A stretch of 64,000 nucleotides of DNA. It comes from Deltaproteobacteria bacterium (GTDB lineage Bacteria; Desulfobacterota; Desulfobulbia; Desulfobulbales; VMSU01). Below, one piece after another: positions 34,288-37,533 of the stretch. The notes under the pieces are model-generated. The model made no database searches and was not told where the DNA came from. It saw only the letters and a program-made list of their open reading frames with translations. The translations under genes and the position numbers were made by a program. How positions within the stretch are numbered: position 1 is the stretch's first letter; every line of letters begins with the position of its first letter. The stretch spans positions 5,704 to 69,703 of the forward strand of contig JAJXUT010000001.1 of the NCBI GenBank assembly GCA_021782655.1, given 5' to 3'.

Positions 34288-37200
34288 ATGACCCCGTTTT
34301 TGGCCGACCTCCACATCCACTCGCCCTACTCCCGGGCCACCAGCCCGACCGGCACCCTGGCCGGGCTCTTCGCCTGGGCCAGGGTCAAGGGCATCTCGGT
34401 GGTGGGCAGTGGTGATTTCACCCACCCCGCCTGGTTTAAGCAGTTGCGGGAAAACCTCGCGCCCGCCGAGCCCGGCCTGTTTAGGCTGCAAGACGAAGCC
34501 GTCCCCCCGGCCCTGCCCGGCGTCCAGCCCGAGGCCATCACGGTGCGTTTTCTGCTCTCCGCCGAGATCTCCTGCATCTACAAGCGCCACGGCCGGGTGC
34601 GCAAGGTGCACAATCTGATCCTGGCCCCGGATTTCGAGGCCGCAGGCCGGATCAACGTCCGTCTTGCCAAGCTCGGCAACCTGGAGTCCGATGGCCGCCC
34701 CATCCTGGGACTCGACTCCCGCGACCTTCTGGAGATCGTGCTGGAGGCAGCCCCCGAGGCCTTCCTGGTGCCGGCCCATATCTGGACGCCCTGGTTCTCC
34801 CTGTTCGGCTCCAAGTCGGGCTTCGACACGGTGGAAGAGTGCTTCGGCGACCTCGCCCCCCACGTCTTCGCCCTGGAAACCGGCCTCTCCTCCGACCCGG
34901 CCATGAACCGCCGGGTCTCCCGTCTCGACCGCTTCGCCCTAATCTCCAACTCCGACTGTCACTCGCCCGGAAAACTGGGCCGCGAGGTCAACCGCTTCGC
35001 CACCGCCCTTGACTTCTTCGCCATGCGCGACAGCCTGAAAAACCCGGCCGACGGCGGTTTTCAAGGCACCCTGGAGTTCTTCCCCGAAGAGGGGAAATAT
35101 CATCACGACGGCCACCGCCAGTGCCAGGTCTGCCTGGACCCCCTGGCCACCCGCGAGCTGGACTCCCTATGCCCAGTCTGCAAACGGCCGCTGACCATCG
35201 GGGTCAACCACCGGGTGCTGGAGCTGGCCGACCGCGAGCAGCCCTTCTATCCGGCGGGCCAGCCGGGATTTGAGAGCATCGTCCCCCTGGCGGAGGTGGT
35301 GGCCGAGCTGTTGGACCAGGGCCCGGCCACCCAGCGGGTGACGGGGCTCTACGTCTCCCTGGTCAACCGGTTCGGCTCGGAATTCACCCTGCTGCGCCAC
35401 ACCCCGATCGAGGAGTTAACCCGCCTCTCTCCGGTGCTGGGCGAGGCCATCCGCCGGATCAGGGCGGGGCAGGTGATCCGCCAGGCGGGCTACGACGGCG
35501 AGTTCGGACGGATAACGGTCTTCGCCGAGGGCGAGATCGCCACCCTGGCGGGGCAGGAGAGCCTGTTCACCCGGCCCCGGCGGGCGCTAAAAACGCAAAG
35601 TGCCGCCCCGGTTATGGCCCCGCTTGCCCGCAGGAGGCTACGGGGGCCGGAGATCCCCGCCGCAACGGCCATGAACCCGGAACAGCGACGGGCAGTGGAG
35701 AGCGAGGCCCGCCGGGTGCTGGTGGTGGCGGGGCCAGGCACCGGCAAGACCTTTACCCTGGTCGAACGCATCCGCCACCTCGTCCTGACCCAGGGGGGCG
35801 AGCCGGACGCCATCGCCGCCATCACCTTCACCCGCCGGGCGGCGAGGGAGATCGAGGAACGTCTGGCCCGGCAGGGGATCAGCGGGGTCATGACTGGCAC
35901 CTTTCACCACTTCTGTCTCGCCTGGCTGCGCAAGGTGCGGCCCGAACTGGTGGTGGCCGGAGAGGAGGACGAATCGCGGCTGCTGGCTGAGCTCTTCCCG
36001 GCGGCGGGGGACAGGGAGCGGCGGCGAATCCTGACCGCCATCGAGGCGCATGGCCGGGCGCAAAACACCCTCTTGGCCGAGGCCCCGGAGGCGAGCCCCG
36101 AGGTGACGGCCTATCTTGCGGCCCTGGATCGGCAGGGGCTGATGGGTCTGGAGCAGGTGGTGCCGGCCCTGCTGGCCAGTATGGCCCACGACCAGCCTCT
36201 GCGGGCCCGGATCCGGACGGGCGTCCGCCATCTACTGGTGGACGAGTTCCAGGACGTGAACCGGGCTCAGTACGAGCTGGTTGTGGCCCTGGGCGAGACC
36301 GCCAGCCTCTTTGCCATCGGCGACCCCGACCAGGCCATCTACGGCTTCAGGGGCAGCGACCCCGGCCTCTTCGCCCGCCTGGGGGCGTCCGATCCCTCAC
36401 GGGGCGTCGAGACCATCACCCTGACCCGCAACTACCGGAGCGGTGCCGCCATCCTTAGCGCCGCCCACGCCTTGATTAGTCACAACCGGGGGAATAGAAA
36501 ACCGCTTTGCCCCAGCGAGGGCGCGGGGCCAGGGCGCATCGAGATGCAGCTATGCCCCACCCCAAAGGCGGAGGCGGAATTGGTGGTGCGACGCATCGAG
36601 GGGCTGATAGGCGGGGTCTGCCACTTCTCCCTGGACACGGGCCGGGGCGGGGCGGGCGAGGGCGAGCTTACCTTTGCCGATTTCGCGGTCTGCTACCGCC
36701 TGCACCGCCAGGCCGAGGCCCTGACCGAGGCCTTGAACCGCCGGGGTCTTCCCTTGCAGGTGGTAGGCTGCCCGCCCTTCTTCATGGCGGGGGAACTGCG
36801 GGCGCTCTACTACTGGGTGCAGGTCGCCACCAGCGCCGCCACCCTGACGGAAGGGCTCAGCCTCTGCCGATTGGCCGGGCTCTCGCCCCGGGCAGTGGCG
36901 GGGCTAGGGGCAAGGCCTGGGATGCGGACGGCCAAGGAGCTGTTCGCCGCCGCCCCCAACCTGGCCCTGCCGGCCAAGGATCAAGCCCGGCTGACGGAAC
37001 TTAAAGCCGGAATTGCCCCCTTTGCCGAGCAGGCCAGGGGCGCGGGAATCGCCGCCGCCCTTTCCGCCTGCCTGCCCCGGCTGGGAATAGCTCCAGGGTC
37101 GGCGTCGCGTCTGATTGATCTGGCCGGGTTGTTCGGCCACGATCTCTTAGCCTTCGGCGAGCACCTACGGGACAACGCCGGAGGCCAGGTCTATGACCCG

Positions 37201-37533
37201 CGGGCCGAGGCCGTGTCCCTGCTCAGTCTCCACGCCGCCAAGGGCCTGGAGTTCCCAGTGGTCTTCATCTGCGGGCTAGAAGAGGGCGTGATCCCCTATT
37301 TGCCGCCCGGCCGGGAGGCGGACATCGAAGAGGAACGCCGCCTCCTCTACGTGGGCCTGACCAGGGCCAGAGGACACCTGATCCTCACCGCCTCCGCCGG
37401 CCATCAACAAGACGGGGCGATGGCCGAGTCCCGTTTCCTTCACGAGTTGCCAGTAGGGCTTATCGAGCTGCCCGGCTCGGGGCAAAAGGGCCGGAAACGG
37501 CGCCATGCCGCCCGGCAGCTACCCCTGTTTTAG
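34288..37533 (+). CDS. Fusion of an Endonuclease Q-like PHP nuclease (N-terminal about 420 aa) to a UvrD/PcrA-family SF1 helicase (C-terminal about 610 aa)
   Basis: N-terminal LADLHIHSPYSRATS..GISVVGSGDFTHPAW plus the zinc knuckle CQVCLDP..(13)..CPVCKRPLTIGVNHRV. Helicase motifs AGPGTGKT, LLVDEFQDVN, GDPDQAIYGFRGS, TRNYRSG, LHAAKGLEFPVVFI, EEERRLLYVGLTRAR. Confidence 0.85.
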   Translation: MTPFLADLHIHSPYSRATSPTGTLAGLFAWARVKGISVVGSGDFTHPAWFKQLRENLAPAEPGLFRLQDEAVPPALPGVQPEAITVRFLLSAEISCIYKRHGRVRKVHNLILAPDFEAAGRINVRLAKLGNLESDGRPILGLDSRDLLEIVLEAAPEAFLVPAHIWTPWFSLFGSKSGFDTVEECFGDLAPHVFALETGLSSDPAMNRRVSRLDRFALISNSDCHSPGKLGREVNRFATALDFFAMRDSLKNPADGGFQGTLEFFPEEGKYHHDGHRQCQVCLDPLATRELDSLCPVCKRPLTIGVNHRVLELADREQPFYPAGQPGFESIVPLAEVVAELLDQGPATQRVTGLYVSLVNRFGSEFTLLRHTPIEELTRLSPVLGEAIRRIRAGQVIRQAGYDGEFGRITVFAEGEIATLAGQESLFTRPRRALKTQSAAPVMAPLARRRLRGPEIPAATAMNPEQRRAVESEARRVLVVAGPGTGKTFTLVERIRHLVLTQGGEPDAIAAITFTRRAAREIEERLARQGISGVMTGTFHHFCLAWLRKVRPELVVAGEEDESRLLAELFPAAGDRERRRILTAIEAHGRAQNTLLAEAPEASPEVTAYLAALDRQGLMGLEQVVPALLASMAHDQPLRARIRTGVRHLLVDEFQDVNRAQYELVVALGETASLFAIGDPDQAIYGFRGSDPGLFARLGASDPSRGVETITLTRNYRSGAAILSAAHALISHNRGNRKPLCPSEGAGPGRIEMQLCPTPKAEAELVVRRIEGLIGGVCHFSLDTGRGGAGEGELTFADFAVCYRLHRQAEALTEALNRRGLPLQVVGCPPFFMAGELRALYYWVQVATSAATLTEGLSLCRLAGLSPRAVAGLGARPGMRTAKELFAAAPNLALPAKDQARLTELKAGIAPFAEQARGAGIAAALSACLPRLGIAPGSASRLIDLAGLFGHDLLAFGEHLRDNAGGQVYDPRAEAVSLLSLHAAKGLEFPVVFICGLEEGVIPYLPPGREADIEEERRLLYVGLTRARGHLILTASAGHQQDGAMAESRFLHELPVGLIELPGSGQKGRKRRHAARQLPLF

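Follow-up and report, generated by a model that had tools for sequence, protein, structure and literature searches.

The stretch of DNA analyzed here, referred to as the window, comprises 64,000 nucleotides of contig JAJXUT010000001.1 from a Deltaproteobacteria bacterium of the order Desulfobulbales (GenBank assembly GCA_021782655.1), a metagenome-assembled genome (MAG) of 2.4 Mb in 140 contigs with 92% completeness. At positions 34288-37533 of its forward strand lies a gene for a 1081-residue protein in which an endonuclease Q (EndoQ)-type nuclease is followed by a UvrD-family helicase. The frame runs from ATG to TGA (stop codon at 37531-37533) without interruption. Its start codon is 45 nt downstream of the stop codon of a YhbY gene, and the N-terminal residues are identical at the start of a homologue with 91% identity. 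Conservation counts throughout refer to an alignment of 137 full-length homologues from many phyla, 66 of them retrieved by protein search and 71 as translated genome loci. The features of the gene, with amino acid (aa) positions and the basis of each assignment, are as follows.

34288-37533 (+): whole gene, EndoQ-helicase fusion, 1081 aa
34288-35082 (+): EndoQ PHP catalytic domain, aa 1-265 (alignment to 5zb8/7k30; residue roles from PMC5961232)
35083-35283 (+): EndoQ zinc-binding domain, aa 266-332 (ligand spacing as in the Pfu enzyme)
35284-35532 (+): EndoQ C-terminal helical domain, aa 333-415, with a GYDGEFG loop at 401-407 (alignment, AlphaFold2 model)
35554-35568 (+): internal candidate beta-clamp-binding motif QESLF, aa 423-427 (homologue alignment)
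35569-35664 (+): disordered Ala/Arg/Pro-rich linker, aa 428-459 (model confidence, homologue lengths)
35665-37422 (+): UvrD/PcrA/Rep-like superfamily 1A (SF1A) helicase core, aa 460-1045 (motifs Q, I, Ia, II, III, IV, V, and VI)
36796-37182 (+): all-helical 2B subdomain, about aa 837-965 (alignment to UvrD/PcrA, AlphaFold2 model)
37423-37515 (+): short basic tail, aa 1046-1076, standing where UvrD/PcrA have a Tudor-like C-terminal domain
37516-37530 (+): C-terminal candidate beta-clamp-binding motif QLPLF, aa 1077-1081 (homologue alignment)

As judged from sequence, the protein, which we term long-form, does combine a complete EndoQ-type nuclease and a complete UvrD-family helicase in a single chain, and by alignment every residue known to be required for activity is present in both modules. 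The sequence-only reading, made from the letters of this DNA before any database search, had likewise described one 1081-aa polypeptide of EndoQ and a UvrD-family helicase; the single frame bears this out, and every motif string it quoted was found. It had proposed that the domain boundaries be mapped with hidden Markov models (HMMs), and these place TIGR00375 on the N-terminal part and PF00580 and PF13361 on the C-terminal part. It had also pointed to an assembly chimera as an outcome that would undo its claim. That an assembly or frameshift artefact joined two genes is conceivable for a genome of 140 contigs, the more so as a two-gene version is known in some other lineages, but comparative data refute it. 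The same single open reading frame (ORF) is present in an independent MAG carrying the 91%-identical homologue (locus L013), and isolates with complete chromosomes, among them Desulfonema magnum and Sorangium, have it too; both linker and junction are conserved in the 137 sequences. Moreover, in a tree of EndoQ domains, all 137 long forms constitute a clan of their own, separated from 20 short or split sequences by a branch with a Shimodaira-Hasegawa-like approximate likelihood ratio test (SH-aLRT) value of 99.8. The chance that the fusion is an artefact is thus practically nil.

We then compared the N-terminal module with characterized EndoQ. The motifs DLHIHSPYS, GSGDFTHPAW, and TIGVNHRV occupy residues 7-15, 40-49, and 303-310, respectively. 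Residues 6-412 align to chain residues 5-383 of 400 of the archaeal (P. furiosus) enzyme PfuEndoQ (PDB 5zb8, 7k30-7k33) at ~30% identity, with an E value of 5e-47 and no large gaps. The NCBIfam model TIGR00375 also matches this part (E 1.5e-46, 159.5 bits), covering model positions 74-374 only and falling short of the equivalog cutoff of 326.6 bits. Because none of 301 genomes of the phylum reaches that cutoff, short forms included, the threshold does not discriminate within bacteria of the phylum. Residue roles were transferred from the PfuEndoQ structure paper (PMC5961232). The metal ligands H9, H11, E93, H108, H164, and D223, which align with Pfu H8, H10, E76, H84, H139, and D193, are invariant (137/137), as is H225, the counterpart of H195. 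Mapping on PfuEndoQ places the lesion pocket at T167, E197, T198, G199, L200, S201, and N221 and the wedge at W169 (counterparts T142, E167, L168, G169, L170, S171, N191, and Trp144). Five pocket residues (T167, E197, G199, L200, and S201) are invariant; T198 is retained in 136 homologues, W169 in 134, and N221 in 133.

The zinc-binding domain required a correction. A CxxC-13-CxxC knuckle had been proposed, whereas the actual spacing of the four cysteines (C279, C282, C295, and C298) is CxxC-12-CxxC, and just 90 of the 137 homologues retain C282. The conserved set includes H276 instead: the predicted ligands are H276-x2-C279-x15-C295-x2-C298, a spacing equal to that of Pfu C249/C252/C268/C271. 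C279, C295, and C298 are retained in all 137 sequences, and position 276 is His in 135 and Cys in 2. In the AlphaFold2 model, the nuclease module adopts the three-domain EndoQ fold and superimposes on 5zb8 in Foldseek with a template-modeling (TM) score of 0.88-0.89 and a root-mean-square deviation of 2.3-3.5 Å. Alignment, TIGR00375, and the zinc domain together identify the N-terminal module as EndoQ rather than a member of another PHP family, the distinction on which the sequence-only reading had staked its assignment. The protein shares with PfuEndoQ its metal ligands, the lesion pocket and wedge Trp, the spacing within the zinc domain, and the helical domain. As in archaeal and short bacterial EndoQ (Bacillus pumilus, B. 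subtilis), a clamp-binding motif directly follows the module, although it is of the bacterial QxxLF type where archaeal EndoQ has a PCNA-interacting protein (PIP) box. Further differences from both groups are the first zinc ligand (His here, Cys there), a ~27-aa insertion near residues 68-86, and the covalently attached 650-aa helicase.

The full set of superfamily 1 helicase motifs that had been claimed was located in the C-terminal part: AGPGTGKT at 481-488, DEFQD at 652-656, GDPDQAIYGFRGS at 678-690, NYRSG at 715-719, LHAAKGLEFP at 981-990, and EEERRLLYVGLTRAR at 1014-1028. Q466 (Q motif) and TFT at 513-515 (motif Ia) were also found, and the SF1A motifs are invariant or almost so across the homologues. 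Residues 460-1045 match PF00580 and PF13361, as well as UvrD, PcrA, and Rep structures at E values of about 1e-55. Identity to these helicases is 26-29%, and the AlphaFold2 model shares their 1A/1B/2A/2B fold, with Foldseek TM scores of 0.72-0.75 against the DNA-bound structures (2is6, 3pjr, and 1uaa). Despite the same motifs and architecture, the module is not an orthologue of UvrD, PcrA, or Rep, since it scores 224-251 bits against their equivalog models, for which the cutoffs are 911-1144. A separate canonical UvrD/PcrA-like gene is encoded elsewhere in the genome (contig C63), indicating that the fused helicase is an extra, dedicated one. The shortness of the helicase part had been attributed to a reduced 2B domain. 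That explains little, as 2B is only about 25-30 aa shorter: between aligned blocks, the protein has 110 residues where Escherichia coli UvrD has 136, and 94 where PcrA has 125. Most of the shortness instead reflects the missing C-terminal Tudor-like domain, the absence of which follows from the PcrA alignment ending at chain residue 663 of 724, where the query runs out. About 50 partly basic residues with a clamp motif take the place of that domain.

A helicase joined to a nuclease recalls AddA/RecB-type enzymes, and one might suppose that the protein acts in end resection or recombination, its EndoQ module having become a nonspecific nuclease. The helicase does resemble AddA, RecB, and AdnB weakly in Foldseek and HMM comparisons, via the common SF1A core. 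Several features make such a role very improbable. A nonspecific nuclease would need neither the lesion pocket nor the wedge, both of which are strictly conserved, and the genome has its own AddA/RecB-like gene (a 1358-aa frame). The nuclease of AddA/RecB is a C-terminal PD-(D/E)XK domain, whereas only a ~55-aa tail follows motif VI in the fusion and its nuclease is an N-terminal PHP/EndoQ module.

Two short segments outside the folded modules resemble sites for the beta sliding clamp. At the C terminus, QLPLF is conserved at Q1077 (137/137), L1080 (133), and F1081 (131); the pattern Qxx[LMF][FLMI] occurs within the last 12 residues of 134 of 137 homologues and at the very end of 112. The internal candidate QESLF is somewhat more variable (Q in 113, L in 121, and F in 126 of 137), with the pattern present in 114. 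It lies at the drop in model confidence that marks the start of the disordered linker, a position corresponding to the C terminus of short EndoQ proteins, and those short forms terminate in the same motif. Both candidates match the beta-clamp consensus pentapeptide (QL[S/D]LF) and lie in disordered or terminal segments. In archaea, the C-terminal PIP motif of EndoQ binds PCNA, which stimulates the enzyme (PMC4858679); by analogy, we infer that QESLF and QLPLF may mediate binding to the beta clamp. The AlphaFold2 model, for which the alignment of 137 homologues served as input, reaches a mean predicted local distance difference test (pLDDT) score of 89.7 and displays two well-folded modules. 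They are joined by a linker that varies from 32 to 97 aa among homologues and is modeled with pLDDT below 50 at residues 430-459; the tail (residues 1066-1081) is likewise disordered and of low pLDDT.

Beyond the window, a phyletic survey of the kind that had been suggested shows the fusion to be widespread. Database searches returned at least 120 full-length homologues with 50-91% identity and 93-100% query coverage, deposited under names such as "UvrD-helicase domain-containing protein," "DNA helicase II," and "TIGR00375 family." Among the matches listed, lengths are about 1064-1131 aa (one partial record has 1001 aa). For full-length matches in the genome scan described below, record titles name delta-proteobacterial reducers of sulfate and metals (Geobacter, Desulfobulbus, Desulfobacterales), myxobacteria (Myxococcales, Sorangium), and hosts from Caldilinea, Bacteroidota, Rhodothermaceae, Planctomycetota, Opitutaceae, Spirochaetaceae, Gemmatimonadota, Micromonospora, Saccharopolyspora, Neomoorella, Binatia, KSB1, Elusimicrobia, and Gastranaerophilales. 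All homologues from the protein search carry the precomputed Pfam annotation PF27218. In species-representative genomes, at least 596 loci across many phyla encode a full-length homologue. The novelty implied for the fusion was accordingly overstated, the more so because long homologues with a C-terminal clamp motif were tabulated in 2016.

Within the phylum, we sampled 151 genomes of at least 90% completeness. Counting by the helicase part alone (one query protein, E 1e-90) proved too strict, retrieving only 9 genomes, and was replaced by TIGR00375 matches sorted by open-frame length. A TIGR00375-type gene was present in 106 of the 151 genomes (about 70%). The long form (open frames of 948-1214 aa) accounted for 41 of these 106 and the short form (about 405-510 aa) for about 57, the remainder being broken or cut by contig ends. 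No sampled genome contained both long and short EndoQ. Presence is all-or-none within taxonomic families, which fits vertical inheritance, and the gene of the window fits a chromosomal, vertically inherited family of long-form bacterial EndoQ. In two genomes, EndoQ is split into two short frames (G104:C1:976544-977720, 252 + 200 aa; G108:C148:3245-4074, 166 + 194 aa), which suggests frameshifted or decaying copies.

Genes encoding the two modules separately provide a further line of evidence. Among 20 short-form loci inspected with 8-kb flanks, one (L095) has a fusion-type helicase gene directly downstream of EndoQ. The same arrangement, a short EndoQ gene followed by an adjacent, separate gene for a fusion-type helicase, recurs in 3 of the 7 genomes of that family; in the other 4, EndoQ stands alone within about 6 kb. 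The two-gene loci are as follows.

L095:7983-10992: EndoQ and helicase as adjacent separate genes
L104:5983-8953: EndoQ and helicase as adjacent separate genes
L106:5641-9109: EndoQ and helicase as adjacent separate genes

The split helicases are 567-606 aa in length, match the fusion-helicase profile at E values of 1e-150 to 1e-164, and have a 2B region even shorter than that of the fusion. These operons thus contain the same two modules as the long form, each ending in QxxLF (in L095, QMSLF for EndoQ and QQRLF for the helicase), and differ in being separate genes whose EndoQ groups with the short forms. Given that grouping, across the branch with an SH-aLRT of 99.8, the split genes are not recently broken long forms. 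With the genome's own canonical UvrD as the root of the helicase tree, the three split helicases group together (support 96) outside the long forms, although the branch separating the two sets has a weak support of 77. The trees are compatible with a single origin of the fusion. The combined gene-neighbor and gene-fusion pattern supplies independent evidence that the nuclease and helicase activities work together. The presence of two clamp motifs in the fusion is also explained, because each protein of the two-gene version has its own.

At the locus itself, the gene order is PhoH/PIN, radical-SAM/SPASM, hemE, HD, hemH, a low-GC ORF, YhbY, and the fusion, followed by DsrC (-), a NadB/Sdh-like flavoprotein (-), HAD, a phosphopantetheinyl transferase (-), and CvpA. 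The co-directional gene run of the locus starts with a PIN-PhoH fusion (PIN_4 + PhoH ATPase) at 26926-28242 (+). The flanking genes of the fusion are housekeeping genes. Between hemH and yhbY lies a 1.4-kb insert, with the following features.

32494-33894: low-GC insert (right border approximate)
32533-33828 (+): HNH ORF, 431 aa

The HNH match of this ORF is N-terminal (PHROG 2118, E 2.4e-8; Pfam HNH, E 7e-4), and the remaining 340 aa have no family assignment. In L013, the gene order is unchanged, the hemH-yhbY gap is about 30 bp, and the low-GC ORF is missing. Considering its low GC content and its absence from L013 at otherwise identical synteny, we regard the HNH ORF as a recent, unrelated insertion; the insert appears to be a free-standing HNH element that arrived recently.

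Proximity to this HNH island had been taken as a hint of defense, and a protein of this type could in principle restrict uracil-containing or otherwise modified invading DNA in a manner akin to Gabija. The HNH ORF lies 460 bp upstream of the fusion, PADLOC models for GajB/UvrD match the helicase part, and one review raises the possibility that EndoQ of Bacillus is antiviral. Yet PADLOC gave only generic matches, as GajB models hit any UvrD-like helicase, and where Gabija pairs GajB with a GajA-like ATPase-TOPRIM protein, the fusion is flanked by YhbY and DsrC, neither of which has an ATPase or TOPRIM domain of the GajA kind. The HNH ORF, being a recent insertion missing in L013, lends no weight, and the GC fraction of the fusion gene (0.686) is native when set against the window (0.637) and the insert (0.413). 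The family-consistent, single-copy distribution is unlike that of defense islands, and the clamp motifs indicate replication and repair. We therefore set the defense reading aside as improbable.

Neighborhoods were also compared across 80 loci by all-against-all clustering of flanking ORFs, and no neighbor was conserved beyond single lineages. Among true clusters, the most populated were those of dnaN (11 loci), a hybrid histidine kinase (10), an SLT transglycosylase, and a GGDEF regulator. In 11 of the 80 loci, all from Desulfobacterales (for example, L015:1624-2748, minus strand), the gene for the beta sliding clamp, dnaN, is located ~3 kb upstream of the fusion. This proximity is lineage-specific synteny, of note only in view of the clamp motifs.

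Taken together, these features point to clamp-docked DNA repair in which a nick is followed by unwinding, a reading to which we assign a probability of roughly 0.6. The protein would dock on the dimeric sliding clamp via its two motifs. The EndoQ module would then flip out a deoxyuridine, deoxyinosine, or abasic residue and nick immediately 5' of it, leaving a 3'-OH and a 5'-phosphate. The tethered 3'-5' helicase would enter at the nick and peel off the lesion-bearing strand; translocation would probably proceed on the undamaged strand, because the lesion is at the 5' end of the strand to be displaced. The patch could be resynthesized by a polymerase held on that clamp, with a flap nuclease and ligase completing the repair. 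The outcome would be excision repair independent of a glycosylase. The scheme agrees with a helicase-dependent branch put forward for archaea in 2015, in which a helicase acts once EndoQ has cut (PMC4357722), and conservation of the fusion in at least 596 loci, together with the two-gene version in 3 of 7 genomes of one family, argues for a functional link between the modules.

Several considerations weigh against this reading. We infer the sequence of steps, the loading strand of the helicase, and clamp binding itself, and no biochemical or genetic work on any long-form member was found in the searchable literature. The model has a predicted TM score of 0.65 and provides no confident geometry between nuclease and helicase; given this and the disordered linker, the relative placement of the modules is undefined. 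The other 19 of the 20 short-form loci have no helicase gene within 8 kb, implying that EndoQ needs no such helicase in cis. In addition, the genome encodes one member of the uracil-DNA glycosylase superfamily, so the proposed pathway would be redundant for uracil. Endonuclease V was looked for in the genome and not found.

The undefined geometry would also suit a protein in which the helicase acts first. As a clamp-tethered translocase or fork remodeler with no role after incision, it could expose single-stranded DNA, clear proteins, or free the nuclease from its product, with EndoQ cutting lesions at or behind the fork. EndoQ is reported to cut single-stranded substrates as well and has been linked to the replication clamp (review; PMC4858679). 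The two clamp motifs and the nearby dnaN of 11 Desulfobacterales loci could be read in the same light. That proximity is confined to one lineage, however, and the sequence gives nothing to separate a role at the fork from nicking followed by unwinding. UvrD-type helicases are known from nucleotide excision repair and mismatch repair to start at nicks, which speaks against action at the fork. We consider a helicase-first function unlikely.

The gene of the window is an ordinary member of a widespread family that was catalogued in 2016. In that year, Shiraishi et al. (Sci Rep 6:25532, PMC4858679) tabulated putative beta-clamp motifs in bacterial EndoQ homologues (Suppl. Fig. S1), including long proteins with the motif at positions 941-1244, such as those of Geobacter metallireducens (WP_004512662) and Desulfobulbus japonicus (WP_028582461). 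Like the protein studied here, these long forms (about 1000-1240 aa) have an EndoQ N terminus and QLxLF at the extreme C terminus. The protein of the window shares 50-55% identity with members from Geobacter and Desulfobulbales, and we see no substantive difference from them. The word "helicase" is absent from the text and supplement of that paper, which reports no long-form experiment. As relayed by Miyazono et al. in 2018 (PMC5961232), a 2017 paper divided EndoQ proteins into three families by domain organization. No study of an EndoQ-helicase fusion was found in the searchable literature, a search that did not extend to Shiraishi 2017, Shi 2021 (PNAS), or a 2020 J Bacteriol paper.

Reviews describe EndoQ as archaeal, with "a few" bacterial homologues, and the steps that follow incision are hypothetical at present. 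An EndoQ homologue in 106 of 151 genomes of one phylum, fused to a helicase in 41, contrasts with that picture. As no EndoQ-type gene there reaches the TIGR00375 cutoff, automated annotation leaves these genes unnamed, which may explain why the literature views bacterial EndoQ as rare. The value of these observations resides in a testable repair model rather than in the locus itself: fused genes, the operon of two separate genes, and paired clamp motifs jointly offer a concrete proposal for what follows EndoQ nicking. The existence of separate-gene operons and the mutual exclusion of long and short forms hint that long-form EndoQ may be a self-contained "nick-and-peel" machine, docked on the clamp and combining lesion recognition, 5' incision, and displacement of the damaged strand in one polypeptide. 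We advance this tentatively, at somewhat less than even odds. If true, many bacterial phyla would possess a glycosylase-independent excision pathway, and an SF1A helicase would be the long-sought downstream partner of EndoQ.

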